Shown here: positions 1,321-32,628 of the stretch, piece after piece
How the letters are laid out: the number at the start of each line of letters is the position of its first letter
Numbering within the stretch: position 1 is the first letter of the stretch
Assembly (NCBI GenBank): GCA_000934665.2
Contig: JYFJ02004364.1
Coordinates: 1 to 32,628, forward strand
Reading direction: 5' to 3'
DNA length: 32,628 bases
Source of the DNA: Catajapyx aquilonaris
Taxonomy: Eukaryota
Position numbers and translations under genes: made by a program
Notes under the pieces: model-generated
What the model was told of the DNA's origin: nothing
The model's database searches: none
The model's input: only the letters and a program-made list of their open reading frames with translations

Positions 1321-1389
<69 letters not shown>

Positions 1390-8887: not shown

Positions 8888-8913
8888 TATATTGGCAATG
8901 AAACAATGTTGTA

Positions 8914-9447: not shown

Positions 9448-9710
9448 CGGACACTTATACTACATTCTGAGCTTATCGCCTGCCGAGGGGTTTTGCAGCG
9501 GGTGCTCACCACCATGAGACATTTCCCGGAGCAATTTTGTGGCGACCCTTCCGGACTAGGCTGAACTTTATAGGTACGAAAGGGAAGCGCTACATGTGGG
9601 CCCAACATGGCCGCCGCTCCGGGAAATGTCTCGTGGCGCTCTCAGGTGAGCACCCGCTGCAAAACGCCCCGGCAGGGGGTGGGTGGGAGTGACCTAACCT
9701 GAGTCTTCTA
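9448..9710. mobile_element. palindromic non-autonomous element, internally deleted copy (same family as 13546-13910)
   Basis: Shares arms cctgccgggg-gttttgcag-ggtgctcacc...ggtgag-acc--ctgcaaaacgccccggcagg and similar flanks with the 13546-13910 copy. Confidence 0.75.
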
Positions 9711-9773
9711 AAACCATGATAGCAATACTCATCTCGATTTGTAAACATCCTACATTACATTACCATGATAAAA

Positions 9774-10913: not shown

Positions 10914-11037
10914 TAATTTAAAATGTGGCAATAGAGTGGCAGTATCTCAATCTCCATAAGTGTGGTACCTAAACTATTTCAGTAACCTCCATTAAGCAGT
11001 TATTATATTTTCTAAAAGCTCAAGTAGGTTTGGGCCA

Positions 11038-11371
11038 TCACAATGTAAAATAATAGGAAATAAACTTCCCTAACTCGCATTTCTATAACTCGAAGTTCTC
11101 CATAACTCGAAGTGGTGGCAGAGCCTTACGATGGGATATCAATATATTTTCAGTCTCCCTAAGTCAAAGTTCATGTTGGCGAGTACCGGAACTTTCTCAT
11201 TTCCCAGCCGAAGGGTCGAGAGTAGGCCACATGTACAGAAAGGCTCAATTTCCTGATCTCAGTCTACCAGATGTACCGAAAGAAGTGTTTGACTCGATTG
11301 TGACAATTGAATCATTGAATCTAAGAGTAGGCAAATGTCCACAACGGAGATTTCTTTTTACAACAAAACAG
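11038..11371. repeat. inverted duplicate of 10521-10854
   Basis: 334-bp reverse complement with two mismatches seen by eye, separated by a 183-bp spacer. Confidence 0.92.
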
Positions 11372-11474
11372 AAAGAGCGACTAGAACAAACATTAAGCCA
11401 CAGTATTGTAGCTGCAACTACGGTGAGTTAGAAAAACCTCATCAATGTTCAGGTACAGCAATTCATTCCCGAAC

Positions 11475-11550
11475 TCCCAGGCGGGGATTGAACCCGCGGG
11501 ATCTTTCGCACAGCTAGCCGAGACGTTACCATCTCGCCCACCACGCCTCC
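11475..11550 (-). mobile_element. tRNA-like SINE head / tRNA pseudogene
   Basis: Minus strand GGTGGGCGAGATGGTAACG...GCGGGTTCAATCCCCGCC has A/B-box-like motifs but no clean cloverleaf. Confidence 0.5.
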
Positions 11551-13545: not shown

Positions 13546-13910
13546 CCTCCGGACACTACCTCTACGTTCTTATCTTATCACCTGCCGGGGCGTTTTGCAG
13601 GAGGTGCTCACCTGAGAGCGCCATGAGACCTTTCACTGCACTGCTATGTGGCGACCCTACCGGACTACGCTGAACTTTATAGGTACAAAAGGGAAGCGCT
13701 ACATTGGGGGACCCAACCTGGTCGCCGGCGGCCTTGCATGTTGGGCCCGCATGTAGCGCTTCCCTTTTGTACCTATAAAGTTCAGCGTAGTCCGGTAGGG
13801 TCGCCACATAGCAGTGCACGGAAAGGTCTCATGGCGCTCTCAGGTGAGAACCTCCTGCAAAACGCCCCGGCAGGGGGTAGGTGGGAGTGTCCAGACCTTA
13901 GTATTCTATG
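13546..13910. mobile_element. palindromic non-autonomous element
   Basis: ~135-bp near-perfect arms (13579-13715 vs 13739-13875). Additional degenerate outer inverted arms at ~13488-13540 and ~13935-13988. Confidence 0.8.
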
Positions 13911-14419
13911 ACCATGGTCTGTGCACAAGTTGATTTAGTCATGCTTCCACCTGCGCTGCTTGCCAGGATACTGCATAAGGCAATTTTTACTACTGTGCCT
14001 GGCAAATAGCCAAAAGAACCAAAGGATCACGTCTCTTGTGGAATTCCCCTTATGGCCGGCGCAAACGAGAAAATGTGGGAGGGAGGTAACTTGCACGCAC
14101 ATATCCAAGTACTCGTGTTGCCCGCTAGAGGGTACAAGTGTCGCGGCCAACCCAGCCCATGCTGGCATGCCAGCACGCAGATCGGCTCCAAATTTTTTGG
14201 CTGCAGGAAATCTGCACGCGCACATTGCCTGAGGAGAGCGCATGTGCTGTGCTGTCCTAGGTGGGCGGGTTGCTCCCAAGTTGCCTCCAAATTGCCCCGT
14301 TTGCGCCGCCGGCCCTTATTCACCATTCCCTAGCCCCTGAAGGGCAGCATCAGGACTTGAGGGTGTGATATTTCTGCTCATATGACTAAGAGTTAAATTT
14401 TGTAACACACAACATGTTC

Positions 14420-14572
14420 AAGCATGGTGATCAAGAAGAAAACGGGAGAACCCCGAGAAAACCCATGCAAACACAGCGAGAATCCAAAGAAACTCTTCCA
14501 CATAAGTGTCCTCCGCGTCCGACCCGGGGAACGAACTCGGGACCTTAGAGGTGGAATGCTGTGGCGTTAACC
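14420..14572 (-). mobile_element. truncated tRNA-derived SINE (same family as 19491-19791)
   Basis: aaacgggagaaccccgagaaaaccca-gc-aacac...gacccgggga-cgaactcgggaccttag-ggtggaa is shared with the 19491-19791 copy. Confidence 0.8.
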
Positions 14573-15795
14573 CAGGGCCGGATCTAGGGGGGGGGGGGGG
14601 NNNNGGGGGCGGCATGTCTTGCCCCTTGAAATGTACTTGTTGCTTAAAATAATATTTTAACCCAATTATTTGCTCAACCCCTGAAAGCAAAACTTTGAAC
14701 AACAGGCAACTGGCCATATTTGGCTCTTTTTTTGGGATATTTTTTGAACTTTTTGAGGCAATTTCTGGACTTTTTGGGCCTATTCTGGACCTATTTCCTT
14801 CAGATGCATTTGTTGTGCTCCTGAAAGGACCAAAATCCTTCAGAAGTAATACGACATAGTTTCCGCTTTCCCTAATGAAAATCAAGAAAAATATTTGGGG
14901 ACATACTGTGCAAGAGTGGAAACGGGCTATGAACGGTAGAGTTCAAAGCAAGTCATACTTGCTGGCACTTTGATTTGTATTTTTCCCACATTTTGTGATT
15001 TTCTGTCAGTTCATCTTTGTCATTAGATTTTTTCTCTGGTTTGTGACCTTATATTTATACTTTAGGCCTATAAAAATTTGTGTCTAGCTTTTTGATTTTC
15101 TGTAACATTATCTTCCGTATAACTCTCGCAAATAAGTAAATTTTTGTGAGTATATATTTTAGGTTTTTTCCCATGTATTGAAGGGTTTATTTGTGCCAAT
15201 TTCAGGTATTTTCTTGCCTAAAAATGCGGGCTTTACTTATTACATTAGTACAGTAATTCCAGCCAGTACTGTGCTCCACGAAGCATCTACGAAAAGATTG
15301 GAAAAAACAATAAATGTGTGAGCTTCCAAATGGCGAAATAATTTAGAGAAATTCTAGATTCCGACATAGCCTACCTGGAGATATCTTAAATTAGTTCTAA
15401 GTGCCTCCACTATATTTTTCTTGATAATTTCAGTTGTTATTTTCTTGAATAAGAATTTCACGAAAAAAATTATATCGAAAACTTTTAGGTTGTAAGCCCA
15501 TACTCGGCTGTGTCGCAAAGGTATAGGCCCGTCTGACATCGCAGGAGTATTGAACGCTTAATTGGTTTGAGTCATTTGACATACAGTAAGATTACGCCAT
15601 AAAATATTTAGAATTTTGCAACTAAGAACTCACTATCAGAATTTTGGTGCCTGGTACAGTTCTTTAAATTGCCTGAAGTAGGTAAGTTACTGAACATAAT
15701 ACATGCATGCCAAAAAAAAGTAAAATGAAGTGACGCTTTCAAAATGCGTGGGTGGTCGGGTGGGAGCGGCACCAAAGGCCTTTGCCCCCCCTAGA
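14573..15795. mobile_element. hAT-like element ends (right end truncated; interior probably composite)
   Basis: Left end CAGGGCCGGATCTAGGGGGG..., partial right end TTTGCCCCCCCTAGA. No TSD is visible, and NNN lies in the G-run at 14601-14603. Confidence 0.4.
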
Positions 15796-15821
15796 CTAGA
15801 AATTGTTATTTAAAAACTCAC

Positions 15822-15890
15822 GGGTCCTGCTTCCTTCTTCTCTATGGCCGGCTGGATGAGTAATTGGGTGTCGCGGAGTACAATCATCTC
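15822..15890 (-). CDS. bol: boule-like copy 1, exon B (RRM C-terminal strands): EMIVLRDTQLLIQPAIEKKEAGP
   Basis: Acceptor cttgtttcccttcgcatcacAG and donor CCC|GTGAGT. 69 nt, phase 0/0. Resembles the Boule segment ECVVLRDRKLNIAPAIKKQ and continues exon A in frame. Confidence 0.85.
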
Positions 15891-16008
15891 CTGTGATGCG
15901 AAGGGAAACAAGAAGTAATCCTATAATCATGCAATATGGGAACCTCATGCAACTATGCCACACTCTGCAATAATGTAAGCCTGCAGTTGTACCAGATATT
16001 TGATAAAA

Positions 16009-16290
16009 TCTATATAAATAAAGAAGGATGTGATCTGTCTGTGTCCGTCCGCCCGCCAGTGCCATTTGTGGTCCTACTCCAACACCTTCAACCTCTCCCG
16101 CCTGTATAACACCAACCTGCCATCTGAGGTCCACCCCAAACACCTCCCACCTCTCCCGTTCTTCCGACCTGGCCTTCCTAAAAGTGTCATGGCGGCTCTC
16201 TGTGCGTGAAAATTTTTACGGGGCTACAGGTAGGTGTTATCCCTTCATTCATTTCTTCCCGGGCAACGCCGCGCCGGGTGCCGCAGCTAG
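16009..16290 (+). mobile_element. non-autonomous Helitron in the copy 1 intron
   Basis: A|TCTATATAAATAAA start, subterminal hairpin CCCGGGCAACGCC...GCCGGG and CTAG|T end. Absent at the paralogous position in copy 3 (~32290). Confidence 0.85.
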
Positions 16291-16539
16291 TACTATATAA
16301 AGAAACTCAAAACCACCAAAAATGAACTTTGTGAGTTTTTCTAGTCTGCAGGCAACACAGTAGCCTATATTACAGTATAACAGCATCACAAGTATGATGT
16401 AGCCTACATCATAATTTTTAACATTTTACTCTATGATAGGCCTCCTTGCTTTATACAGTGATTTACAGTGGTACGTGAACACAATTATTTTGGGGTTACG
16501 CGAAAGATATCGTGCAACAGTCTCTACATATATCTAATT

Positions 16540-16941
16540 CAGCGGTTCTTAATCTGCGGTGCTCGCACCCCCAGGGGGTGTGAGGTGGCTCCGTGCGAGC
16601 AGGGTTGCCAGATGTAATTTCCGGGTCCATATCATGTACCATAATGGTACACAAATGATTTCACCACAAAATGTGTGACCTTGAATCCAAAGAAATTTTC
16701 GGCTGCGGCCGGCTTGCTCCCCACCCTTTACGACATGATCAACTTTTTCATTGGCGAGTATTTCCCCCCCAATTTATATCACTTTGCTTTAAATACTCGA
16801 TTTGCAAAAAGTACCATAATTTCCGTGGGTTGGTATACCATAATTCGATTCCGCGATCTGGCGAGCAAGGTGCACCTCTAACTATGAACGTCCAACTGTT
16901 TTCAAAGGGGTGCGGAGGCCCGAAAAGGTTAAGAACCACTG
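16540..16941. mobile_element. hAT (Charlie-like) MITE with a nested AGGGTTGCCAGAT-type element (~16600-16866)
   Basis: TIRs CAGCGGTTCTTAATCT / AGGTTAAGAACCACTG. The 8-bp TSD is not clean. Confidence 0.65.
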
Positions 16942-18079
16942 TTCTCAACTTCTAATTCAACAAGAACTTATGAGAAAAACACAGAAAATGGCCCAACTCA
17001 TTCGCATCTTTCTTTTATGCTAAGTTATTATTATTTTCGTGAAGATTTATTATATGCCGAGGCATTTTCTGACTGATGCCATTTTTCATTCAGCACACGC
17101 GTTGAAACTCAAGAAGCAACAATGGCAGTGTTACCTCGAACAACTGCTTCAATTCTACCATTGCGCTTTGTGAGGATTTAAAAATAAACTCTGGGGCTGC
17201 AGGTGCTGATCTACCTAGCCTAACAAGTTTCGATTATATCAACGAATGAAACTGAGAGCCTTGAAAAAAAAAATATCCATCCTGTTGTTTCAAGCCCTTT
17301 TGATTTACAGGCAAATGGCAAAGTTCATCATTTCGGCGGTTCTTTGTAAGACCATAAAAGTGCCAGTTACCAAAGTTTTATCGTACATATATGTACTATA
17401 TCGCTCAAGTGCGGCCTACACTTGAATCAAATTCAAAATCGTGTTTTTGAGCGATATAATAGTACATATTCTGAAAGGCCAAGATCTACTCTACTTTCAG
17501 GAAGTGAAAACCAGAACACCCCATCTTGAATAGACACCAAACAGTAGGCTTTTTTCAGAACCCTTGCAAATGCTCGTTTTTGCTCGCCGTCGTGAAGAAA
17601 AATGAGTATAAATCCAACATGGTGGCAGATAAAAAATTAACGAAAATTGTTTTGAGCAATTCAATACCAAGGCTACCTATGCTGTGGTGAAAAAATAAAA
17701 AATTAACTAGATGGTCGAGCAACCACCATGGACCATTTCACATGGAATGACTCTCAATAAAAAATCAGCCACGTGATCACTCCAATTCAGTGGCTATCGC
17801 AAGCCAATGAAATGTCTGTTCTCATAGGCGCATGTAGTGGTCACGCCAGCGAGTGCATATCACACAATAATTATTTGCCCCGCCATATAATACACATCAT
17901 ATCCACACTTAACCATTAAGCAGTGCGCTGGGGATTAACTGACCACCACGCATCGTAACATCCCATTTAGTAGTGTTGCCACATTGTGCAACCAGCATTT
18001 ATTTTTATTAAATAATGCTTTTTGTGCGCAATATATGACTCGAAAAATTGGTCGCCATCTACCTTTGTCAAAATAATAA

Positions 18080-18702
18080 TAGTCAAATCCCGATAACTCG
18101 AACCACCATGAGACCAAGAAAAAAAAAATCCACTTATCGAATATGGTGGGGTAAACAGCACCCGCACAAATTAAACACCTGCAGTATGTTGTGTATACTG
18201 TATCTGTATAGTGTAGACTGTAGAGTGTTGTTTATTGCTTTTATAGTGCTGAAACCCGTTTTAGGGGTTATAACAGCACTTTGCAGTAGCCTACAGTGTA
18301 GCCTCTGAGCTCTGACTGCTCTGAGCCAAAAGGCATGTCACTACCGCAAAGTAATGCATGAGGCACTACCTACAGGAAAGGGAGCTTAAAACACGTGGCT
18401 TTCAGAGGGCTTCGTGCATTCCTTCGCGGCTTATCGAGAATATTAACCAGCTGGGGTGGAAATCTCCAAAAATGAATCCTACCACATGTTTGCCCAACTT
18501 GGAAATTCCCCGGTGTTGACAAAATTCGACTTATTAATAGTGAAAGTGCTGCGGAGTTCACAAAATATATTCGACTTATTGAGAAAATCGAGTTATCGAG
18601 TTATCGGAGTTCAATTTGCATTACAGTATAATTATGGAGAATCCGCCAAGTCCAAGATTTTCTTCGACTTATCGAGAATTTCGAGTTATCGGAATTTGAC
18701 TG
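18080..18702. mobile_element. pogo/Tigger-like MITE
   Basis: (t)AGTCAAATCCCGATAACTCGAA...TTCGAGTTATCGGAATTTGACTG|TA, with repeated TCGA(C/G)TTAT motifs. Confidence 0.75.
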
Positions 18703-19030
18703 TAATAAAACATCTTGGATGGTTTCTGGTGCCTGCTGTGCTGCTGCTGTGGCCATTTCTAATGCGACAAAATTGGCAATTTCTCAATGTTCCAGCTCAA
18801 CTTTTCACTATTCAGATAACAAATATTTAAAACTGGTTTTCACTTTTCATACATTATAGGAATGGCTAGGCTACAGTTTGCGATCGGGGTTGGGGAGGGA
18901 GGGGGGGGGGGGGCTCCCAACGGTTGGCAACGGTGCGTCTCAAACAATCGGGTGCATTGATACCAAATTCGAATGCCTTCATGCTTTGCTTGATTAGAGA
19001 GGATATACAGTACGTAGGCTACAGTACAAT

Positions 19031-19285
19031 GAAGAAGGGAGAATTGAATGTCCAGGTCACGTTGTGGAAATTGACGAAACCAAAATAGGTTAGTCCTTCA
19101 CGCTTTCTTTTATCATGACATGTGTGAGGGTGTGTGTTCTTGTCTTCAATAAGGTATGGGGACGGAAACAGGTGTGTTACTGTAACTCTGGGGACGTTGA
19201 CCCAATTGTGGGGACATTTTAGGTCCCCACAGGGCAAAACTGCTTCACACACGAGAATCTCACATCGGACGAATATGTACGGCGG
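19031..19285 (+). mobile_element. Merlin/ISXO2-like transposase fragment with possible right TIR
   Basis: EEGRIECPGHVVEIDETKIG matches the Merlin GGPG.xVEIDEx.FG motif and is followed by G|GTTAGT. GACGAATATGTACGGC resembles a Merlin terminus. Confidence 0.6.
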
Positions 19286-19293
19286 GCAAACTG

Positions 19294-19485
19294 TAGTATT
19301 TGATATCAGAAAAAACACGATCGAAAATGATAGCTCCTCAACAAAACCGTCTAAGTACGTAAAAAAAACCTGTCTCCCCATGTTTTAGAGGTCGCTGATT
19401 TCAATTTTCAGGTTATTTTGAACCTGGACATACAGGGTGTACCAAAAAGTCGCCATGGAATTCAAGAACTTCTAGACAAAAACAC

Positions 19486-19558
<73 letters not shown>

Positions 19559-20720
19559 GATACCCCGTGATAGGCCCCTTGGGCCTCTTAGGGGATCATC
19601 TTTTGAATAACCGATTTTAATCATTTTGCCTGTAATGTGATGGATTTTGATAGTGGGAGGAAACGGGAGAACCCCGAGAAAACCCACGCGAACACGGAGA
19701 GAACCCATCGAAACTCTATCCACATAAGTATCCTCCGTCCGACCCGGGGATCGAACTCGGGACCTTAGCGGTGGAAGGCTGTCGACCAGTGAAAAACACT
19801 ATAAGTAGGTGTAAATAACAATTCCCGATGTTTCCGCGGTCACTGATTTTGATTTCAAGGTTATTTTGAACCAAGACCTACAGGGTGTACCGAAAACACT
19901 GTCGAATTTGTATAGGATAAATGGTATAAATGATTGCAAATAATGTTCTTAATAAAATGAGAGGGTTACTAAGAGAATTAAATCATTTGTTTATTTACTA
20001 ATTATTTTTAATTTTGATAAAATAAAATTTTAAAAATAGCTTGATTTTTTTTTTGGTGTTCGTTTGATAAATCCTATCATGAAAAAGGCGCGACACGCAA
20101 CGACATCATGAAATTGCTGTTATGGTGACCTTCAGGATGTACTGTAACTAGAATATCATAATCCAGCTGCTAATATCTGCTAGCCCCAATTTTAGAAATG
20201 AAAACACCTGAGAGGTGCATGCGAGGGAGGTTCTATTTATGACCTAAACTGAATTTCAAAGATCATTAATTAATAACTTCTACATTTTTCAGAAGCACAG
20301 TGTGTTTTCTAAAGTTCTGAGTGCCTACATAACAAAAAACTACATAATTTAAACAGCAATCGCGATTTTGTGCAGAAACATCATTTTCAACTAATTCCAC
20401 TATTTATTCCATGAGCTCTCACATTTGATGGTGTTTTTGATACAGGGGTGTAGGTCCGGGTTCATTATAGCTTAAAAATCAAAATCAGTGTTCCCCAACA
20501 CATTGGATTTTTTTTTCACCTATCCGTACTTATAATGTAGATTCTACAAGTTCTTAAATTCGGTGGTCTTTTATGGTACACCCTGTATGTCCTGGTTCAA
20601 AATAACCTAAAAATTGAAATCAGCGACCCCTAAAACATGGGGAGACAGGTGTTTTACGTACTTAGACGGTTTAGTTGAGGAGCTATCATTTTCGATTGTT
20701 TTTTCTGATATCAAACACTG
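19294..20720. mobile_element. non-autonomous Tc1/mariner-type element with long (~300 bp) subrepeated TIRs, in the copy 1 intron
   Basis: (t)AGTATTTGATATCAGAAAAAAC...GTTTTTTCTGATATCAAACACTG|TA. Internal direct repeats ggttattttgaacc..gac.tacagggtgtacc. A SINE is inserted in the left arm. Confidence 0.82.
19491..19791 (-). mobile_element. 5'-truncated tRNA-derived SINE with (TTA)n tail
   Basis: B box GAGTTCGATCCC and (TAA)n on the plus strand at 19488-19556. 13-bp TSD AAAAACACTATAA at 19478-19490 and 19792-19804. Confidence 0.9.
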
Positions 20721-20828
20721 TATGTCGTCTGGTGATTGGGTGTGAATCGGGCAGATATATTGGTGTGATACCACTGTAATACGCTAACTAAAATTCGAAA
20801 TTCCAAACATATAAAGAATGAAGCTCAC

Positions 20829-21188
20829 CTCTCCGAGAACCCTCTGAGCTTCGCTGTCTGATTCGAAGGTAACAAATCCATACCCCTTCTTAACCCCAGC
20901 TCGGTCATAAATTATCTTGACTCCCGTGATGACACCAAAGCAAGCGAAGCATGCGGTCAGTTCAGTCTTAGTAGTCCCGGCAGGAAGCCCTCCTACGAAT
21001 ACACGGTTCGGGACCAAGGTCCCGTACGTAGGAACTTTCTTGGCAGCAGCCGCTGCTGCAGTACCATAATTTCCTCCACTACCTCTTCCGCTGCTCCCTC
21101 CAGTGCTAATTTCGCTCGGTGGGGCCATTCCACTGGATGTCTGGTTCATAGAGAGCGGGTTGGTCTGGCTATTCCAGCATGAATCCGG
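20829..21188 (-). CDS. bol: boule/DAZ-family RNA-binding protein, copy 1, exon A (N-terminus plus most of RRM)
   Basis: Encodes ...KKVPTYGTLVPNRVFVGGL...DRAGVKKGYGFVTFESDSEAQRVLGE, matching the Boule signatures YGTLxPNRxFVGG (RNP2) and DRAGVxKGYGFVTF (RNP1). Acceptor ctgatctgttgttctttcAG, donor GAG|GTGAGC. 360 nt, open throughout, candidate ATG at 21149. The symbol denotes the family; orthology is not established. Confidence 0.92.
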
Positions 21189-21240
21189 CTGAAAGAACAA
21201 CAGATCAGTGTTCGTATTTACAAGTTCAATATTGATTGAG

Positions 21241-21600
21241 GTTCATTAGGCCTGAACAATGAGAAGCAAGAGCATTTCATCAGACTGAGTGAGTACAGTA
21301 TGTGAGAATGATAATGAGTCACTTGGCAATTATTATTGGTAGACCTATCTAAGGCAATAAGAAGTAGCCTACTGGAATAAAATAAGTTTTTAAAAAAAAT
21401 ACAGCCTATTGCATAACTTGCAGTGCGTATAAACCATAGATATCTATTGTTGTGCATTGTCATTGACGTCATGATGTCATTGACGATGTGACAGCGCAAT
21501 CCTGTCCTTTACGCTGCTAGAAACATGTGCTGGTGCAGTCCTCAGACTGCCAATGTTGATTCGGGACTGTTTAGCCCTATATTGTTCCCAAACGGACGTT
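21241..21600 (-). promoter_or_regulatory. conserved upstream non-coding blocks of copy 1 (putative promoter / 5' UTR intron)
   Basis: Aligns by eye with 25245-25500 and 25965-26050 upstream of copy 2 (for example gctgctag-aac--gtgctgg-gcagt and tgttgatt-gg-actgttta-cc-t). Function is inferred from position only. Confidence 0.4.
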
Positions 21601-21699
21601 TGGGAACAATAGGGCTAAACAGTCCCGAATTAACGTCCCCCGGGCAGTGCAGCCAATTTCTATTCCTACACAATGTGTCAAAGGGCCGCTAGGAAATGT

Positions 21700-22092
21700 T
21701 GTATTTGTCAATGCCGTTTTACGATTTCTAATTATGGGGAAGTTGAAAGGGGTGTTATGTACAAGATGAAGCCTCGCACCTAGGCAGACCTGAGAGAACC
21801 ATCTAAGCAGCTATTGCAACCATTGATGAAGCGACGCGACGCTGCATAGGACGTTTGACAGTTTGAAGCATTGCAGTGAGTTAGTCTGTGTCTGGACCAC
21901 GGCTGGATGATGTCGACGGTGGCCACTTACACAGCACTTACTGTGATGTAGTCACCTTTCACAACATACGTGGAATCACTGGAATGTTGTAAACAAAATA
22001 TAGCCTACCGTACACTGTCTTTATTTTCTTGCGTTCTGTGGGGGTTAGGAAGCTACTGTACATTCGGGTCAACTACCTCGTGAATCTACCTG
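21700..22092 (+). mobile_element. Tc1/mariner fossil (transposase C-terminus plus right TIR), paralogous to 31091-31620
   Basis: Degenerate DF.LWG.LK..VYK.KPRT..DL...AIATIDE...GGH..HLL*. The TIR ggtcaactacc..tgaatc..cctg is shared with the copy 3 region. Confidence 0.65.
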
Positions 22093-22193
22093 GTATTAAT
22101 TCCAGTCACCACCGTCAAATTATTATCATCATTGTCATGTCATCAGGAGGGGGAAATGAACCCACACGCCCACGATCATTCAAGTTAGGCGCC

Positions 22194-22471
22194 TTAGTCG
22201 TGCGGGATTTTCCTCCCTTCCAGATAGATGCTTGCCCAACATTTCCATTGGTGCAACCTAAACTTTGGCATTTTCTGACTGCGAATCTAAAAGTCACTTA
22301 CGATTATGATTGCATTTTTACAAATGTTATTGAAAACTTCTAAAATATATTGTTCTCAGTCCTGGGAATGTAAAGTACCAAGGCACGTCACAGTTAGCTT
22401 ACCCACATGCATAATAAACCATAAAATATTTCACAACAACAATAATAATTGCTCAGTAACATTGATTGCCT
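22194..22471 (-). CDS. candidate 3' exons of copy 2 (22403-22471 and 22194-22286)
   Basis: Acceptor tttttgctcctctAG, donor TGG|GTAAGC and second acceptor gacttttAG are all shared with copy 3. Phase-0 reading gives RQSMLLSNYYCCCEIFYGLLCMW + IRSQKMPKFRLHQWKCWASIYLEGRKIPHD*. The frame is not conserved in copy 3, so this may be largely UTR. Confidence 0.35.
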
Positions 22472-22492
22472 CTAGAGGAGCAAAAACAATTA

Positions 22493-22936
22493 CTATCCGT
22501 TGTGTTTGACTCTAAACAATAACTCCCAGGCAAATTATCAAAAAATAAAAAATAAAGTTACCGGTATATATCGTTCGAAAGCTTGTTTAAATCCCCGTTT
22601 CATATGTGCGAGTTGTTTTCCTATCGTCAGTCTCTAATTCTTTTTCGTAAAAAGAAGGCGGAAAAGTGTCATTTTTTGACTAGTTGCCGACGTTGCACCG
22701 CAAAGTGAATATTTTATGACACTTTCAGGAGCCCCCAAAAAATCCCCCTGTGAACCCTGGATAGTGCACATCTTTGTCTATCTAATTATATATTTGAAAC
22801 ATTGAGATTGCCATTTCTGTAATCAGAATTAAGTTAATTGCACATCTCTGTTATCTCGGCTGTTTATAATTCGAACTTTGCCTGGGAGTTGTTTAGAGTC
22901 AAATACAGGGCTCAATAGTATTAAATAAACGGATAG
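22493..22936. mobile_element. TA-flanked MITE in the copy 2 intron
   Basis: TA|CTATCCGTT...AACGGATAG|TA with inner inverted arms. An empty site (aacaattggtcca) is seen in copy 3 at ~32008-32020. Confidence 0.8.
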
Positions 22937-23000
22937 TAGTCCAGTTTTTCTTTCTTCGACACACTGACACAAGCAGATGAACAGGATAATACAGTAATAA

Positions 23001-24143
23001 CACTATGCAACAAAATTTGACTTTTTTTTGTCCATAGAAATTCATCGGCATATACGTGTTCCTTAGGTCACAAGTAACTTATAATGGGCATTCATTTTGT
23101 CTTTGATTTGTTTTTGACCTTTGGGCAGTCCAAAAACCAAAATTCTCAAATATAGCAGTTTTTCCGAATCAAGTGGGCCTAAATGTTGCTAGACGATCTC
23201 GGATTTTCCTGAGCATAATCACAGCTGTACACACCTATGCCGTAACACTGCTTATCAAGTTTCAGCCAAATTGCGAAATATCGCGGTGAGGGAAAAAATC
23301 GCGAAATTATGAAAACATGGGTTTTTTTGGATAATTTTTTTCGGTTATTGGAAGTGGTCAAAACCCAATCAACATATACGGTACATCAAATGAAAGAGAA
23401 ACGTGAGTAGAATGCGCCTATGGAATTTGTGTTTCTCGAAAATGCACTCAGAAAAAAAGTATGGCATTCAATCGGTCACATGCTCAGTAACATGTCCAAG
23501 TGTTTAGACCCCAACAATTAGTGATGTATTTGCGTAAGAGAAGCCATATTTGGTGACAGGAGTTGTGACCCATACCAATAAGATTCAATATGCTCAGTTT
23601 TAATCCTGGGTCATGCATGGCTCGCGAGAAAATAATAGATATGTTTCTCCGAATTACCATTAACTTTAATGGAGCCAAATTCGTGGAAATGTGACTGGCG
23701 AAATGCCACACATGCTTTTATGAGTGCATTGTCCAGAAAAACAAATTCCATGGGCGCATTCTACTCGCGTTTCTCTTTTATTTGATGTATATGTTGATTG
23801 GGTTTTGACAACTTCAAATAACCGGAAAAAAAATCATAAAAAAAACCATTTTCAAAATTTCGCGATTTTTTTCCCTCCCCATGGTATATCGAAATTTGGC
23901 TGTAACTGGATATGCAGTGTTACGGCATTGTGTACAGCTGTGATTATTTTCAGAAAAATCCGAGATGATCTAGCAACATTTAGGCCCACCTGATTGGGAA
24001 AAACTGCTATATTTGAGGATTTTGGTTTTTTGACTGCTCCGAGGTCAAAAACAAATCGAAGACAATCAATATGAGTTACGAGTGGCCTAAGGAGCATGGA
24101 AATAGCAATAAATTTCCATGGACAAATATCGTGTTGCATAATG
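23001..24143. mobile_element. CMC-like (CACTA/Transib-type termini) non-autonomous element with ~450-bp TIRs
   Basis: CACTATGCAACA...TGTTGCATAATG, flanked by TAATAA on both sides (TSD length ambiguous). Long inverted arms. Absent from copy 3. Confidence 0.78.
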
Positions 24144-24194
24144 TAATAACAAGTAATGTAATAATAAACCAAGAATTTTAAAAAAAAAACTCAC

Positions 24195-24260
24195 GTTTGC
24201 GGTTCTTGAAAATCCCGGTGAAATTATTAGATTGCACCCTCCCCATCGTATGCGGCCAAT
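24195..24260 (-). CDS. bol: boule-like copy 2, exon B: IGRIRWGGCNLIISPGFSRTAN
   Basis: Acceptor ccttttatatcccatcacctcatAG and donor AAC|GTGAGT. 66 nt, phase 0/0, no stops. Upstream intron is homologous to that of exon B in copies 1 and 3, and the L-x-I-x-P pattern is kept. Confidence 0.75.
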
Positions 24261-24815
24261 CTATGAGGTGATGGGATATAAAAGGTAATCTTGTAATCAT
24301 GCAACTGGAACTTCTTGCAAATATGCCACACTCTGCATTTAAATGAAACAGAAATTGAGTAATGCTGTCAAATAACTCAAAGCTGCCGAAAGAGGCCTTT
24401 CTGGGGTTTTCTCGTGTTCATATGATATAATAACTTACCAAGTAAAAGGCATAAAATGTACCCACCCAGTAAACAGAAACCCTGCATAAAGACACCATTA
24501 CGGGGACTGATATGCACCCTTCAAATTCATAAGGCCTGTCCCATCTACTCCCTTGCATAGTCTGACACTAACATTGCCCTGCAAAGAAGTTGCTATACGT
24601 ATACCATACAGGAACTCTGCCGCGAATTAAAGTTGGGCTCTACAAAAAATATCACTATTTAGACTATCACAAGTCCCCAGTATATAATATTGTATTACAA
24701 TTTAGTAATAGATACATTGAAGTAATGCAGATGGATAGTGGGGTTTCTCCTATTTCCATGGACTATAATGGCTAAGTGCAATTCCAAACAATATGGGCTA
24801 AAGAATGAAGCTCAC

Positions 24816-25004
24816 CCATTTTATGAGCCTCCAGGCCTCTTCCTCTGTTGCGAAGGTAACAAACCCGTACCCCATCGAAACCCCAGCTCGGCCAGAAATG
24901 ATCTTCACTCCCTTGATTACACCAAAGGGAGCAAAAAGACTAGTTAATTCCATTTCTGTCGTTTTGGGAGTCAGGTTTCCTACAAATACTCTGTTCAGGA
25001 ACAT
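24816..25004 (-). CDS. bol: boule-like copy 2, exon A coding part (RRM); the exon may start at 25106 or 25198
   Basis: MFLNRVFVGNL...SGRAGVSMGYGFVTFATEEEAWRLIKW, 37/63 aa identical to copy 1. Same donor context GTGAGCTTCATTCTTTA as copy 1. The frame is open upstream to a TAA at ~25137-25139. Confidence 0.85.
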
Positions 25005-26476
25005 TGTGACCGTTCTGTCGTCACTATCAGTTGCAGGAGAGGCTTCATGCAGTTCACAACCTCTGCTGCTCCTACCAGAGATGGACGACGCTATTTCTCT
25101 GGTTACCTGGTTGATGAAATAAATAAATAAATAATTTTAATTTAATTTTAATCAATATAAATAGACAGAATGGGTATTGGGAACTTAAAGCCCAAATACT
25201 GAAACAACAGCAGGTGTTCACAAGTCTAAATGCTTGATATTTATTAGTCTGAACAATGAGATATTTCATCAGACTGGGTCAAGTATTTATAGCTACAGTA
25301 TGTGAGAATAATAATGAGTCAATTTGTGATTATGGGTAGGCCTATCTATTAAATAGACCTACCCATAATCACAAATTGACTAATTATTAAGTTCTAAGGC
25401 AATAATGAGAACTCCTGGAATAAAATTAATTTATTATATTACCGCCTAGTGCATAGCTCTCTTGCAACTTGCAGTGTGTATCATGTATAAACCATGATAT
25501 ATCTTGCTATTTATATTTTTAGAGTGCGCAGAAGTAAAAAAATAAAAAATACGGTAGCATGTCATGCCCCTAGGTAGGCCTACTCACCTTCAAGGCAAGG
25601 CCCAGTCCATCTTCTCATTGGGTTCAAATAACACGTAGGCCTACAATGGTAATAATCTCTTACACTCCTTTATTGCCTCTCTACACTATATTGTCCTGTG
25701 TCTCCAAAATTTTAATGCAATCATGTCAAATAGTCAATTATGAGACCCTACCATTGTAAAGATGAAATCTTTGTGCAGGACGCCTACAAGTAGTTCGTCT
25801 TTTTCCAGATTAACGACGCGTTTCGCGACAAAAGTTTATTACTTTATTTCCCTGCGATATGCGTTACTGTATTTATGCTACTGTCTACTGAGCAGCCTTA
25901 ATCCTTGGCGATGCGACGTGACACACAGTAGTATAGTAGCCCTGTAGACTTACTTTATCGATTCAGTGCTGCTAGGAACGCGTGCTGGGGCAGTGGACTC
26001 CCATTGTTGATTTCGGAACTGTTTACCCTTATTGTTTCCAAACTGACAGGGACAGCAGAGCAGGCCAATCCAAAATGTCAGGTCGCGTGTTTCAAAACCG
26101 GAAGAAATACTGTGACTTATTTCTGTCGGTTATGGTGCTACCACCTGTCATAGAATGGGGCCCTAGCCTTGGCCTGGGATTTGGGTAATTTGTACACGAA
26201 TAGCTCATTCATGCATATAAACCTGCATTCCACCACTTTTCGGCATCAAAATGTCTAATTGATTAATTATCGGGGGTTTATTAAAAGTCACTCGCAAATT
26301 GGCGGGAAAAACGGGGGCATGGCCTAAAAAGCGCATTCCCACTCCTGCCTAACCAAGCCAACAACAGTGACGTCAGCAGACCGTTGCCTGGCGGTCGTTC
26401 GATTCTGCTTATTTACTGGCGGTCCTGTTCGATTCCGTTGTTAGGCAACAAACACAGGCACCTTAGACTGTATATA

Positions 26477-27060
26477 CAGGGTGTTAATGAATTCAATCGA
26501 CAAACTTGTAGGGTTGATAGAGTATAGAGGGGACCAAGACAAACATTTTTGACATAGGAAACCGTGTCCGGAAACGCCATCTGGAGGGGGTTCATAGACA
26601 AGGAACGGGTGCGCTCGGACGCGTCACGCGAGAGGCGCTAGTCGAGCGGACTGTTTTTTTGATAGATGGCGCGCAGGTGTTGCCAGGTTATGGCGTATCG
26701 TCGTGTCGTTGTAAGTAAACACAAACGCGATACGCCATAACCTGGCAACAACAGAATAACCGCTGTTGACTATCCGCGCGTCTCCTAGGAGGCGGACTTT
26801 AGTTGCTAGATGACTCTGTTGTTGCCACGTTATGGCACATCCAGGCACATCGCATCGTTACTATCCGAGCGCCATCTATCAACAAAACAATCCGCTCACC
26901 TAGCACCTCTCGCGTGACGCGTCTGAGCGCACCGCCCGTTCCTTGTCTATGAACCCCCTCTAGATGGCGTTTCCGGACACGGTTTCCTATGTCAAAAATG
27001 TTTGTCTTGGTCCCCTCTATTACCCCTACAAGTTTGTCGATTGAGTTCATTAACACCCTG
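26477..27060. mobile_element. Tc1/mariner-type MITE
   Basis: TA|CAGGGTGTTAATGAA...TTCATTAACACCCTG|TA, with ~195-bp TIRs and an internal hairpin at ~26678-26750. Confidence 0.9.
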
Positions 27061-27605
27061 TATACCAGTAGACGCTCCCCTCCCGTTTACGAGCAAGCGC
27101 AAAAGTGATGCCAACATCTCCGAGGGGGGGATCACGTGACTTAGGGCAAAAGGGAGGCGGGAAGACGAAATTAACATGGCGCCTTATGGGGATTCCGACT
27201 ATCTTGGCGCCGTCACTGTGAGGCGCATATTGGGACTAAAAATATGCAATGGGTACCAAATGATAGCTCCATTCATGCCCCGTCTCATGCCGTACATCTC
27301 CATCCGAGAGGTTGAGCGGGGAAGGACATATAAAATCCTACACTTTGTCATTGTTTCTCGCCGTAAGTGCAGTTTGTGTCACTACATCACTCAAACACCA
27401 CATTAAAATGTTCCAAATTTTAATATGTTGTACCTGATTGTACAGACAGTCTCCCTCTACATGTTTCACCAACTCGGGGCCGATTATCGAGGTTAATTTA
27501 ATTATGCGAAAATAAAAAAGTGAGCATATGAGTGATATCAAGGTGATATCGGAACTTAGGGCAGCTTCAGTTAGGTACTGATTGATCAAAGTATGTGCAA
27601 AATCT

Positions 27606-27701
<96 letters not shown>

Positions 27702-27745
27702 GCAGCAGCAGCAGCAATAGTAGCAGTAATAATAATAATTGTGCC

Positions 27746-27823
<78 letters not shown>
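27606..27823. repeat. inverted microsatellite pair (AAT)n...(AGC)n...(TAT)n
   Basis: Directly visible. Extends the foldback stem almost to a gtgcc loop at ~27741. Confidence 0.95.
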
Positions 27824-27825
<2 letters not shown>

Positions 27826-28116
27826 GTTTTGCACGGACTTTGATCAATCAGTACCTAACTGAAGCTGCCCTAAGTTCCGATATCACTCATATGCTCACTT
27901 TTTTATTTTCGCATAATTAAATCAACCTCGATAATCGGCCCCGAGTTGGTGAAACATGCAGAGGGAGACTGTCTGTACAACATATTAAAATTTGGAACAT
28001 TTTTATGTGGTTGTTTGAGTGATGTAGTGACACAAACTGCACTTACGGCGAGAAACAATGACAAAGTGTAGGATTTTATATGTCCTTCCCCGCTCAACCT
28101 CTCAGATGGAGATGTA

Positions 28117-29438
28117 GGGTAAAGTAAGGTTGGATGGCAAATTTTCCAAGCAAATTTTTTTTACGAGGTTAGGTTCACCATTTTAACCAAAGTTTTGGGC
28201 CAATATCATTTTTCAAATATCCTTCACCATAAGTAAATAATTACAGAAAGCAAATAAGCAATACATTATATGTCAATTAACTTCTAAATTTCAGCTGCAA
28301 ATAGTAAGATTTTTCAAAACAGTAGGTTGAATGGCAAGCCCATCAGGTTGCATGGCAAAGTGTAAAATTACATGGCAATTTATTAGGTATATCAGAAATA
28401 ATAATCACTATTAAAGGGGGGTTCACACTAGCTGACGGGAGCATACGAAAAGACCGATCCGAAAGAGTGGACCAATCAGAGCCCACTTGAGGATGACGAA
28501 AAGTGAAAGGGATTACGAAACGGAAAAGACGGGAGAAATCAACTTTTGACGGACACGGAATACGGAATACGTAGGCTTACGGACCTATCCACCAATGGAA
28601 GAGCCAGGAAAGCGGCAGGGGTGTGGCGAGCGAAAGTGAAAAGAAAATCCGGCAGCGCCTCTGGCGAGGACAGGACGAAGGACATCAGTCGGGAGTCGAG
28701 ACCCAGGGGGAGCGGGCCTCGGGAGATGGGAGAAGAGAAGGGTATGATACCGGTCCGAAGGGAGGGAGAGCCCGAGGGAGATCCGGCTTCCTCCCCGAGA
28801 ATTCAAGCACAGCGCATGCGCTGCGGGATACAGAGGCTAAAGCCACGCCACTCGCTTTTGTGTCTGAACACCTTTCCCCTCTTTCCGTTCGTTCCGTCAT
28901 ACCGTTCCGTTCGTTTCGTAGCTAGTGTGAACGCGCCTTAAAGCTGTTTAGTGGGACCAGACCCGCTCCTCTGAAGGCACCTTGAATGTTAGTGACCACA
29001 AGTCCAAGTTGGAAAATGAGTGCCTCCATGACAGGTGCAACCTTAAAAATTTGCCAACTTTGTTAAGGCCTGTACGAGCGCTATTGTGAATTTTTCAAAA
29101 CTGTGTTTAGTCACAATTGTTCTTTAAACTCTCTAAATTGGATTCATATGCATTAAATTATGAAATACTGACTTTCTAACTCACTATTAATCTGTTTTTG
29201 ACCGTGAGGTCCGGCCGCGCTCCAGCAGACGCCAAAAAATTTCCAATATGGCTTCCTCTTCGGATAATTAGGTTGTCACACAATATATGGCAGTGAAGTA
29301 TTTTTTGTAACACAGCTGGAAGGTGGCTCCACACTATGAATAAACGGCAACTTTAGAAAGGCGCGATTTCATAACTATTTTAATTTAACAAAAATCTTTG
29401 CCATCCAACCTGACTTGCCATCCAACCTAATTTTACCC
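28117..29438. mobile_element. TA-duplicating non-autonomous DNA transposon nested in the foldback arm
   Basis: TA|GGGTAAAGTAAGGTTGGATGGCAA...TTGCCATCCAACCTAATTTTACCC|TA. The left arm shows the empty site with a single TA (~27294). Confidence 0.85.
28415..28938. mobile_element. PIF/Harbinger-like MITE (innermost insertion)
   Basis: TAA|AGGGGGGTTCACACTAGCT...AGCTAGTGTGAACGCGCCT|TAA, with a 3-bp TAA TSD. Confidence 0.8.
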
Positions 29439-30059
29439 TACAGCATGAGACGGGGCATGAGTGGAGCTATCATTTGGTAACCATTGCATATTTTTAGTCC
29501 CAATAGGCGCCTCACAGTGACGGCGCAAAGATAGTCGGAATCCCCATAAGGCGCCATGTTAATTTCGTCTTCCCGCCTCCCTGTTGCCCTAAGTCACGTG
29601 ATCCCCCCCCCCCCCTCGGAGATGTTGACATCACTTTTGAGAGGGAGAGGGAGCGTCTACTGGTATATATGGTCTAAGACAGGAACAAAGCAGCCCGGGT
29701 GCATTTACTGCCTCTGCACCGATCTGTTTAGCAACACTGACGTCAGAGGGTAATACGATACCGTATAATTATTATGATCTTAGACTTAGATCGATCATAG
29801 CTCGAAGACTAATGTGTATTTCTTCAAACAAAAAACACCAAAATTTATTTAAAAATAGTGATGATTTTTTACATGGGTTTGTAAAATGAAGGCTAGGACC
29901 CCATTTGGTGTCTCTCACACGCAAAGGGTGTTACGGAACACTAAGCTTGCCAGGCAATCACACATGCATTATCCACACGCATGGCGGAAGGTGATCAACA
30001 AAATAATGCACAGGGTGAATGTAAAGTCAGGACACATAGGTAAATGGATTGTATCGATA

Positions 30060-30811
30060 CAAGGGCAAATCAATAAGTAACGCACAATAATTTTTTTCGA
30101 GCCAAGTTTAATGTCTATAACAAATGTTTTATAGGTGACAGCAAGGAACAATCTTTGGCTATATTTTAAAGCATATGAACCGTTTCTGTTGATGCATTTG
30201 TCTCACTATGGCACAAGGTTTAAAATACCATGTTTTTATAGCTCCGTTTTTTGCCTTTTTTTCTTTGTCTTTTTTTTTGTCTTTTTTTAAAGAAGGCAAA
30301 GAGACGAAAGTCGCTCGGCGTAAGGTCAGGTCCATGGCCAGGTCTGTACACATTTGCATGAGGGTGCCCCCAAGTGCATCAAAAGAGAACGAGCCAGCAA
30401 AGATGGCGAATGTGTTAGCATCGTCCACCCTTATTGAGCAATAAGCTGCTGTTCTTTTTTTGTCGGAGAAAGGGAAAACACTCACCCAAATTCACACGGA
30501 CATGACAGAAGTGTATGGGAACACATGCCTGGACCATACCAACATTTCAAGATGGTGTACTTGTTTTTTGAGACCGAGAAGACATTGCCGATCAGCATCG
30601 TCCCGGCCCCCCAGTGAAAAAGGTATTTATGGCAAAAAACGGAGCTCTAAAAACCTGGCATCTCTTGTGCCACGGTGGGACCAATGCATCAACAGAAACG
30701 ATTCATATGTTGAAAATTAGCCAAAGGTTGTTCCTTGCTGTCACCTATATAAAACATTTGTTAACTTTGTTCGAAAAAACTAATTGTGCGTTACTTATTG
30801 ATTTGCCCTCG
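30060..30811 (+). mobile_element. internally deleted mariner element with expanded TIRs
   Basis: TA|CAAGGGCAAATCAATAAGTAACGCAC...GTGCGTTACTTATTGATTTGCCCTCG|TA. Remnants MANVLASSTLIEQ*..IHTDMTEVYG..ISRWC..F and LVPRWDQCINRNDSYVEN*. The catalytic domain is missing. Confidence 0.9.
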
Positions 30812-31090
30812 TATAATTATGTTGGTTGCAGTTCTACCAGCTATTACTAGTAGGTTGTTGACAGTCAGTAAAGGTTGAATATTATACAGTACATTTAAAA
30901 ATACTGTGTTTTTCCTAGGAAAAGCGGTTTCTCCATTGGTCTCTCCAAATCATTCCCCAGTGAATTTCCACGCCCTTTCAAGAGTTGAATATTCCCTATT
31001 AAATACAGGTGCACACTAATTGTCTCCCAGTTACATTCTAATTGCTGCGATCTCTGTCACTCACTATACAGGCATCAACCCCTGCTAATA

Positions 31091-31620
31091 CAGTGTGATT
31101 CACTAGGTAGTTGACCCAAGTAAATGTGTGTAGTTTTCCTAGTAATACACGGAAACAGATAGATATTACGCCAATCCCTTCAACATTTCCTTCGCCGGGA
31201 GGTGTTACGTGACGCGGCTCATGAGTCACCAAAAGTCATGGCGCAAATTATCGCGAGAGACTGGATGTTCCTTTTCAAAGCGTCAAAGGGTCTTCGTCCG
31301 TATCGTGTGACGACTTTTACTTGTGGGGAGATTTAAAGGGGACTGTGTACAAGACGAAACCTCGCACCTTGGCAGACATGGAGAGGAACATTGAAGACGC
31401 TATTTAAACCATTGATCGATTGATGGAGCGAAGTTTGGTGTCCATAGATATTAAAGGCTGTGTCTGGACATCGGCGCGGCGGCCATTTTTAGCACTCACT
31501 GTGATCACTCGTCGCCTTTAGCATCATACGTGGTATGTTTGAAACAAAATACAGACTTTGCTTGCGTTCTATGCGGGTTAGGAAGTTATATTCAGGTCAA
31601 CTACCAAATGAATCACCCTG
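31091..31620 (+). mobile_element. Tc1/mariner fossil with both TIRs
   Basis: TA|CAGTGTGATTCACTAGGTAGTTGACC...GGTCAACTACCAAATGAATCACCCTG. Remnant DFYLWGDLKGTVYKTKPRTLADMERNIEDAI. Confidence 0.75.
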
Positions 31621-31982
31621 GTATTACAAGTAATACCAATCACCACGATCGTCAAATTATTATCATCACTGACGTCATCAGCAGGGGAGAAATGAACCCA
31701 CTCGCTCACGATAATTCAAGTTTGGTGGGATTTTTCTCCCTTCCGGAGAGATGTTTGCCCACATGCCAATTAGTGCAACCCGTGCACTTTTGCATTTACT
31801 GACTGTGGATCTAAAAACCACTTGACTGCACACTTACAAATTGTTGAAAACTGCTGAAATTGTCCTCAGTCCTGGGAGTTTACCCAGGCACGCCACCGTT
31901 AACTTACCAATATGCATAAACCATATAAGCATTTTACAACAATAATACCTTAATGGCACAGTGACATTGAGTTGCCTCTACT
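31621..31982 (-). other. candidate 3' exons / 3' UTR of copy 3, paralogous to 22093-22471
   Basis: Clear nucleotide similarity with indels to copy 2. Acceptors at 31982/31977 and 31810, donor at 31908. The tested splice paths hit stops early (SRGNSMSLCH*, IHSQ*). Confidence 0.4.
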
Positions 31983-32103
31983 CTAGAGGAGCAAAAAAAA
32001 ACAAAAAAACAATTGGTCCAGGTTTTCCTGCCTCAACACACCGACACAAATATATGGACATGATCTTATTTAATAAGCCGGAAATTGTTATTTAAAAACT
32101 CAC

Positions 32104-32178
32104 GGGCGCCGCTTCCGATCCCTGGGTCATCCTGGCCGGACCAATGGTAATTTTGTTGTTGTCCATGAAGATGAATTC
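32104..32178 (-). CDS. bol: boule-like copy 3, exon B: EFIFMDNNKITIGPARMTQGSEAAP
   Basis: Acceptor cttgtattccttctcatcacAG and donor CCC|GTGAGT. 75 nt, phase 0/0, with an IGPA motif. Flanking intron aligns closely with copy 1. Exon A is presumably outside the window. Confidence 0.8.
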
Positions 32179-32628
32179 CTGTGATGAGAAGGAATACAAG
32201 AAGAAATCCTATAATATGAAATATTGGAACCTCATGCAAATATCTCACACTGTGCAATAATGTAGGCCTACAGTACTACCCAAAATAGGATAATACCGCA
32301 AATAACCTCAAATCCTCCAAAACGAACTTTGTGGGTTTCTCTGGTCTGCAGGCAAAAGGTAGTGTCCGGGTTGCGCGCACCTAGGCAACGCCATTGGCAA
32401 CACTGCATGCATTTCGTTCAAAATCGATACCATCCGATACCACTGACATCTTTTAGTATTTTTAATTGTTGCAGTCATCTTGCAGCAAATACGGTACTGT
32501 AATGGGCTCTTAGGTACAATAAAAATCGAGTGTACCGAGCAGAGAAGTCCACAGTGGTTCATACCAGCTAGCAAGCAACTGAGACTGCGACTCAGTTTCC
32601 GTGCTACCGAAAATAAAGTCAACATAAT

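Follow-up and report, generated by a model that had tools for sequence, protein, structure and literature searches.

Proteins of the DAZ family bind the 3' untranslated regions of germ-cell mRNAs by means of their RNA-recognition motif (RRM), and they promote the translation of these mRNAs. Boule is regarded as the slow-evolving, single-RRM ancestor of this family, and the usual DAZ-family or Boule protein carries one N-terminal RRM in a chain of about 30 kDa. The boule locus described here lies in a stretch of 32,628 nucleotides from Catajapyx aquilonaris (assembly GCA_000934665.2, contig JYFJ02004364.1, positions 1 to 32,628), referred to below as the window, and departs from that pattern in holding at least three RRM-encoding modules, two of which are complete in the window. 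We read it, with a probability of roughly 60%, as a single boule locus whose RRM modules were duplicated in tandem, diverged and were kept over a long time, and not as three genes.

Multiplied RRMs have been described within the family in primates. According to the available parts of the respective papers, RRM duplications occur in two of the four human DAZ genes (VanGompel and Xu 2011, PMC3329454), DAZ1 having three RRMs and DAZ4 two, with identical RRM copies, and reports of multi-RRM DAZ proteins are limited to certain primates (Tsai et al. 2014, PMC3988571). Excerpts of two further sources describe invertebrate cases: the boule paralogues macbol1-3 of the flatworm Macrostomum lignano (PMC3158854) and two Boule-like genes, perhaps full boule paralogues, of a sea anemone (PMC2904765). 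The flatworm and sea-anemone paralogues resemble the present locus as a lineage-specific invertebrate increase of boule-type RRMs; however, they are full genes with an RRM and a DAZ repeat, whereas here the RRM part alone is multiplied. DAZ1 and DAZ4 are of the same family, and in them too only the RRM-encoding exons are duplicated in tandem, with the duplicate ending inside the next intron; the window copies are, in silico, likewise compatible with in-frame serial splicing. The first-pass annotation of the window had likened the locus to the DAZ gene cluster. That comparison fails at the level of the gene cluster and holds for the RRM exon block inside DAZ1 and DAZ4, which is the closer parallel because only the RRM segment is duplicated. 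Nevertheless, the DAZ copies are identical and recent, whereas the window copies appear old, with no more than 59% identity between their two A exons; in addition, each window module carries an upstream flank, and the one-chain form is predicted here from sequence.

Read directly and translated, the minus strand carries five exons in the order B3-A2-B2-A1-B1. The repeated 5' module would begin with an upstream flank, followed by exon A (from RNP2 to helix 2), then an intron and finally exon B (the last strand and a tail); it is predicted to encode the whole RRM and to have been duplicated in tandem at least twice. The exons and the segments adjoining them are as follows.

21149 (ATG) to 20829, minus strand: exon A1, from RNP2 (PNRVFVGG) through RNP1 (GVKKGYGFVT) up to the end of helix 2; donor GTGAGC.
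21150-21188, minus strand: A1 leader, 39 nt before the ATG; acceptor TGTTGTTCTTTCAG followed by CCG, with its AG at 21190-21189.
15822-15890, minus strand: exon B1, sequence EMIVLRDTQLLIQPAIEKKEAGP; acceptor ending in CATCACAG, donor GTGAGT.
24816-25106, minus strand: exon A2; candidate new acceptor AACCAG followed by GTA (AG at 25108-25107), donor GTGAGC after 24816.
25107-25198, minus strand: AT-rich insertion, bounded on one side by the ancestral A-type acceptor (CTGCTGTTGTTTCAG followed by TAT, exon start 25198) and on the other by the region of A2 that once held the start codon.
24195-24260, minus strand: exon B2, sequence IGRIRWGGCNLIISPGFSRTAN; acceptor ending in CCTCATAG, donor GTGAGT.
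32104-32178, minus strand: exon B3, sequence EFIFMDNNKITIGPARMTQGSEAAP; acceptor ending in CATCACAG, donor GTGAGT.

All five exons are open and every junction is in phase 0. The donors read GTGAGC or GTGAGT in five cases out of five, and the acceptors of B1, B2 and B3 are all YAG preceded by a pyrimidine-rich tract. The exon set and order, splice sites, open frames and homologous flanks given in the first-pass annotation were thus borne out on direct reading, and its junctions 20829/15890 and 24816/24260 are exact. Exon A1 begins with an N-terminus rich in S, G and A ahead of RNP2, and its leader is open in the A1 frame over 13 codons. Exon B1 encodes the last strand of the RRM and an AIKKQ-like tail. 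In exon A2, with RNP2 LNRVFVGN and RNP1 GVSMGYGFVT, the reading frame is open from 25136 and hence across the N-terminal region, which in alignment with A1 shows one gap of 12 nt and one of 9 nt. The codon homologous to the A1 start has changed from ATG to ATC (25115-25113), and the first in-frame ATG of A2 stands at 25004, three codons ahead of the first strand, where an out-of-frame ATG overlaps it. Exon B2 is strongly divergent and retains the x-L-x-I-x-P-G pattern of the last strand. Upstream of B3 only 450 bases remain to the end of the window; a third exon A is not found within the window, and the A partner of B3 would lie beyond its end. Pfam RRM_1 matches A1 (E 1.4e-13) and A2 (E 4.5e-16), and these matches, together with the homologous intron flanks, place the exon array beyond chance. 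An assembly artefact as the source of the copies is ruled out, since A1 and A2 are only 67% identical in DNA.

The placement of the window RRMs in the Boule/DAZ family, on very long branches, is supported by named best hits, profile scores and a tree clade. When A1 is compared with solved structures, mouse DAZL (2xs5, 58 bits, residues 43-105) comes first among the single-domain matches, and poly(A)-binding protein outscores DAZL only through the summing of several RRMs. An exhaustive phmmer search with A1 against 1.84 billion representatives matched 10,925 proteins at E ≤0.001; among the matches listed, those with one matched stretch are 47-62% identical to A1. The named best relatives in the profile search are protein boule of Drosophila navojoa (P0155), Anabrus (P0136) and Nilaparvata (P0166) and the Boule of Athalia (P0111), followed by boule-like proteins of a tick, a scorpion and a horseshoe crab. 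With A1 alone, a word-indexed search of a 5.8-billion-sequence protein collection returned only generic hnRNP-like RRMs among longer proteins and nothing among those of near length, and the ESM Atlas gave generic RRM clusters only. A Boule RRM profile built from 15 named arthropod Boule RRMs scores A1+B1 at 113.7 bits and A2+B2 at 80.5 bits, the reference scores being 150-173 for arthropod Boule, 115 for bird Boule, 76.5 for primate DAZ and 62 for the best RRM from outside the DAZ family. In a maximum-likelihood RRM tree (67 rows, 86 columns), 23 DAZ-family rows, A1B1 and A2B2 included, are split from 44 other RRMs with a support of 99/98; the split is present in 100% of 200 bootstrap trees, and both window copies fall among arthropod Boule. 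The family identity proposed in the first-pass annotation is therefore upheld, and its view that the copies are unusually divergent for Boule agrees with the end branches, which measure 0.59 for A1B1 and 1.28 for A2B2 against 0 to 0.37 for the other arthropod Boule rows.

The motif comparison points the same way. The Boule signature is given as PNRIFVGG and GVSKGYGSVT in the available part of Shah et al. (2010, PMC2904765), and the 19 arthropod Boule rows have GVSKGYGF at the RNP1 position. At RNP2, A1 matches the signature in seven of eight positions and A2 in six of eight, so that the signature appears clear in A1 and weaker in A2; the 19 arthropod Boule sequences have 34 exon-A columns with a conservation of 90% or more, of which A1 shares 29 and A2 shares 26. 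The junction between A and B (VLGE/EMIVL), that is, the intron after helix 2, lies where the database models P0158 and P0157 enter an intron, and the model P0102 has an unspliced in-frame insert at the same position. The other RRM introns described in the available part of Shah et al. (PMC2904765) are absent from these exons. The window RRMs thus share with the Boule of Drosophila, Athalia rosae, ticks and horseshoe crabs both the signature and the tree position. Unlike the RRMs of those proteins, which are near-identical to each other, the window copies are long-branched and their RRM exons are present in three or more copies; the post-RRM motifs of arthropod Boule are likewise not found in the window.

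The extent of the duplicated segment bears directly on how many genes the locus represents. Its limits and the homology between the spacers were drawn from self-comparison, alignments and a sensitive search, and are listed below.

15799-15821, minus strand: the 23 intron bases after the B1 donor, identical after B3; 3' breakpoint of the duplicated segment.
32064-32016 with 22987-22939: collinear spacer homology.
32000-31304 with 22489-21715: collinear spacer homology, 69.6% over 799 columns in the self-comparison.
26047-25968 with 21597-21513: collinear spacer homology.
25348-25231 with 21351-21233: collinear homology of the upstream blocks.
23027-24126, no strand assigned: inverted-repeat element with arms 23027-23481 and 23689-24126 (82%), inserted just downstream of B2.

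In the sensitive search the homology downstream of B1 and B3 runs over 15799-15824 and 32081-32106 with 26 of 26 bases identical and then ends, and what comes after B2 and B3 has no match anywhere in 1-15798. On its 5' side the copied segment takes in at least 1.1 kb ahead of exon A, and on its 3' side it stops 23 nt beyond the donor of exon B. The B3-to-A2 and B2-to-A1 spacers are collinear homologues, which indicates that the whole inter-module spacer was duplicated and supports an origin of the copies by local tandem duplication. Later insertions, such as the inverted-repeat element at 23027-24126, break this homology, and the spacer at 21715-22489 holds an old Tc1/mariner-like fragment on the plus strand. 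Because the duplicate ends 23 nt past the B donor, modules 2 and 3 would never have had 3' exons of their own, and only A1/B1 is continuous with downstream sequence. Of the modules, A1/B1 moreover resembles Boule most closely, and it alone retains the ancestral ATG. In the absence of 3' exons of their own, modules 2 and 3 would act, if at all, inside the transcription unit of module 1.

The C-terminal part of Boule was sought in the same window. A tblastn search with 15 Boule proteins found both A exons at E 1e-13 to 2e-25 and none of the post-RRM Boule motifs (NGxPYxYxNGxAFF and the Y/P/Q-rich DAZ motif), which are well conserved from ticks to birds. The Pfam Daz family (PF18872) matches primate DAZ but none of six named or presumed arthropod Boule proteins and is for that reason unusable as a check for the motif here. 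Exons following B1 may be located outside the window, past its start. These results bear on the claim of the first-pass annotation that the array consists of at least three separate genes. A head-to-tail cluster of three or more complete boule paralogues could draw on the conserved upstream block before each A exon, a possible promoter, and on the three boule paralogues that flatworms have according to the available part of Kuales et al. (2011, PMC3158854). Nevertheless, the duplicated segment stops 23 nt past exon B, no Boule C-terminal motif occurs between the modules or elsewhere in the window, and the ancestral start codon is missing from A2, which makes a set of separate genes very unlikely and leaves that claim unsupported.

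The same breakpoint sequence raises another option, in which each module is a stand-alone RRM mini-protein ending in a retained intron after exon B. If the B1 and B3 donors are read through, the frame continues with VSF and meets a TAA, and the 23 post-donor bases identical in modules 1 and 3 contain an AATAAC string. However, read-through from B2 continues for 35 codons, the donor GTGAGT is kept in all three B exons and points to splicing, and A2 is without a good start codon; we regard this option as highly improbable.

The modules are framed by non-coding sequence that is more similar between copies than the small exons are, and the main conserved flanks are these.

21233-21351, minus strand: conserved non-coding block upstream of A1; partner 25231-25348, 72% in blastn.
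25231-25348, minus strand: conserved non-coding block upstream of A2; partner 21233-21351.
15891-15990, minus strand: conserved intron, the 100 nt upstream of B1; partners 24261-24360 and 32179-32278.

The A-upstream blocks reach an identity of 0.87 over 41-170 nt upstream of the acceptor and may be promoter-proximal or splicing control elements. Between modules, identity is 0.75-0.86 in the 100 nt preceding the B exons and 0.69-0.92 in the first bases after the donors; exon B itself does not rise above the shuffled baseline (0.62), and saturation has been reached at its silent sites. A structured-RNA reading of the flanks was rejected, the consensus folds being weak (-8.1 and -6.4 kcal/mol, with two compensatory pairs each), and docking/selector pairing between flanks was rejected as well, all 12 duplex tests falling within the shuffles (z -1.35 to +0.77). 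Rfam, run on the whole window, gave a single tRNA-like match, far from the boule locus.

The flanks are also what identifies two of the three B exons. For exon B1 there is support from proteins: tblastn matches it to Boule proteins at E 0.044-0.5, and its addition lifts the Boule profile score from 96.1 to 113.7 bits. B2 and B3 were found by none of the protein searches run and are absent among the best 80 tblastn hits, so that their status as exons rests on flank homology with B1, position, frame and splice sites. The flank of B2 is 0.79 identical to that of B1 over 100 nt; for B3 the corresponding figures are 0.86 upstream and 24 of 26 bases downstream.

How the modules would be used can be approached through their reading frames. 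A serial join of B3, A2 (from 25106), B2, A1 (entered at 21188, behind its acceptor) and finally B1 is stop-free in silico over 287 codons, and the junctions B3-A2, B2-A1 and A1-B1 are all in phase 0. The most likely mode would be serial splicing, in which case a single Boule chain would contain two or three divergent RRMs. In favour of it, A2 has acquired an AT-rich insertion and lost its ATG, yet 33 more codons stay open with in-frame gaps. As a second option, the modules might be used alternatively, as exchangeable RRM cassettes on shared downstream exons; that both A exons retain good acceptors and that the flanks show no pairing counts against such use. Mutually exclusive exon arrays of the Dscam type are tandemly duplicated alternative exons. 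They resemble the present locus in combining divergent duplicated exons with well-conserved intron flanks, but here the repeated unit is two exons with an upstream flank, and no docking/selector pairing was found. In the protocadherin and UGT1A clusters each variable unit has its own promoter, lacks an acceptor and is spliced to shared constant exons. The window does not follow that variable-first-exon arrangement, as both A exons keep a good acceptor and the window contains no constant exons.

A number of results bear on whether modules 2 and 3 have been maintained. Over 63 RRM codons A1 and A2 differ by a non-synonymous divergence (dN) of 0.34 and a synonymous divergence (dS) of 0.81, a ratio of 0.42, with an excess of silent changes (Fisher p 0.0064); the first-pass annotation had named a ratio near 1 as the mark of pseudogenes, and the value found is not near it. 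When nine outgroups are used, the protein changes unique to A1 number 6-10 and those unique to A2 number 9-12, and all nine Tajima relative-rate tests of A1 against A2 fall short of significance; because the unique changes are alike and no test is significant, A1 and A2 seem to have evolved at similar protein rates, with no faster drift in A2. The coding indels and length differences are multiples of three in four cases out of four (the 12-nt and 9-nt gaps in exon A and the B lengths of 69, 66 and 75 nt for B1, B2 and B3), unlike the neighbouring introns, which are rich in gaps. When neutral substitutions alone, with indels uncounted, were simulated at 0.4 changes per site, A2, B2 and B3 were jointly stop-free in 1.5% of trials. 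The synonymous divergence of at least 0.8, saturated in exon B, shows the modules to be old, as judged from the two A exons and the B exons compared here. The extra modules appear to have been retained as coding sequence during the greater part of their history, because their frames are open, the indels come in threes, the splice sites are intact, the rates are equal and the intron flanks are constrained.

The strongest competitor holds that only A1/B1 works as the first part of boule, while A2/B2 and B3 are dead relics of partial duplication not yet bearing stops. It would account for the loss of the ancestral ATG from A2 and for the out-of-frame ATG that overlaps the in-frame one at 25004, for the alteration of a lysine in RNP1 and of a conserved aspartate, for the profile gain of merely 0.6 bit from B2, for the failure of protein searches to detect B2 and B3, for the A2B2 end branch of 1.28 and for the lack of 3' exons in modules 2 and 3. 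On the other hand, dead exons would have had to escape stops jointly with a chance of about 1.5% at 0.4 changes per site, indels uncounted, and to have taken all four of their indels in multiples of three. A2 shows no more unique protein changes than A1 and, of the 34 Boule columns under strong conservation, it retains 26, where A1 has 29. Moreover, intron flanks of 75-92% identity stand beside exons with saturated silent sites, and conserved splicing flanks around dead exons are hard to explain. We consider the relic explanation doubtful, though a serious one.

Several observations weigh against the preferred reading of modules kept over a long time within one locus. Taken by itself, the pairwise dN/dS of 0.42 is also compatible with a constrained copy paired with a neutral one, and the relative-rate test, the sole counter to that possibility, rests on few sites. 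A2 bears signs of wear, with K changed to M in RNP1 and the conserved D before RAG changed to G, and A2B2 adds to its end branch of 1.28 an odd residue composition; B2 raises the Boule profile score by only 0.6 bit. The serial join has weak points too. When B3 is joined to the ancestral acceptor of A2 (exon start 25198) a stop follows after 16 codons, so that an in-frame B3-A2 join needs the other, putative acceptor at 25106; the B-to-A junctions are putative ones, derived from in silico joining, and the openness of the A1 leader over 13 codons would arise about half the time by chance. Finally, the exons downstream of B1, and hence the DAZ motif, were not found in the window, so that module 1 is only a candidate for a complete gene.

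If serial or alternative use were real, the product would be an arthropod Boule with two, three or more old, diverged RRMs per polypeptide, or with cassettes swapped on a shared tail. We put this forward only tentatively. Should it hold, the locus would be an independent and far older counterpart of the multi-RRM primate DAZ, in which selection keeps different RNA-binding surfaces, and the presence of several divergent RRMs would widen or alter the set of bound messages. Long-separated RRM modules that combine conserved splicing flanks with diverged RNA-contact segments would, if maintained, offer a natural experiment on target change in the germ line, on which primate DAZ is uninformative because its RRM copies are identical. 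For annotation, gene predictors would overlook or wrongly join B exons of 22-25 codons and an A2 that lacks a start codon. In a literature library, the only source searched, no paper was found that describes boule RRM exons duplicated in tandem in an arthropod.

More than one Boule-type RRM is present in only 3 of 275 proteins examined, which were drawn from the best 150 and the best 120 hits and do not amount to a census, namely a primate DAZ (P0023, with three RRMs and nine Daz repeats), a bird gene model and an unnamed model of 221 residues with two partial copies. The last of these (P0074) reads through two near-identical divergent boule-like exon A copies about 107 residues apart and joins A1 at 82/80 in the exon-A tree, possibly by long-branch attraction; tandem copying of boule exon A may therefore not be unique to this genome. 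In the bird boule-like model (P0192, 534 aa) the complete Boule sequence is followed by a second copy of itself, the two RRMs scoring 115-116 bits each; either the predictor merged a tandem duplicate or the assembly contains a repeat here.

Other features of the window were recorded alongside. Pfam, run on the 34 other open reading frames of the window, gave two sub-threshold matches only. One, at 30445-30717 on the plus strand, is a helix-turn-helix fragment of a Mos1/mariner-type transposase (PF17906, E 1.9e-4, below the Pfam cut-off); an inverted repeat of about 200 bases (82.6%, 30057-30255 against 30631-30814) encloses it, and 30057-30814 is in all probability a decayed mariner-like element in the B3-A2 spacer. 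The other, an open reading frame at 12273-12572 on the minus strand with a CxxxCFxNxxxxxC pattern, matches the crustacean CHH/MIH/GIH neurohormone family weakly (E 0.0093, 16.3 bits against a cut-off of 25); as a CHH-type neurohormone it was rejected as probably a chance match, there being no nearby partner exon with the remaining cysteine pattern.

The tRNA-like match lies at 1050-1122 on the plus strand (Rfam RF00005, E 0.0046, its 32 bits exceeding the gathering score of 29), adjoined by a long AAT/ATT microsatellite at 1320-1403, and could be a tRNA gene or a tRNA-derived repeat. Two long AAT/ATT microsatellites fall within the boule locus, one at 19487-19557 in the A1-B1 intron and one at 27604-27830 in the B3-A2 spacer, the latter with two arms in opposite orientation. 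An assembly gap of 4 N (14601-14604) lies 1.2 kb downstream of B1, and the repeat adjoining it is shared with 19658-19782 (88%). The inverted repeat 10521-10854 / 11038-11371 has arms of 334 bases that are 99.4% identical and a gap of 183 bases, so that 10521-11371 looks like a very young foldback or palindromic element.

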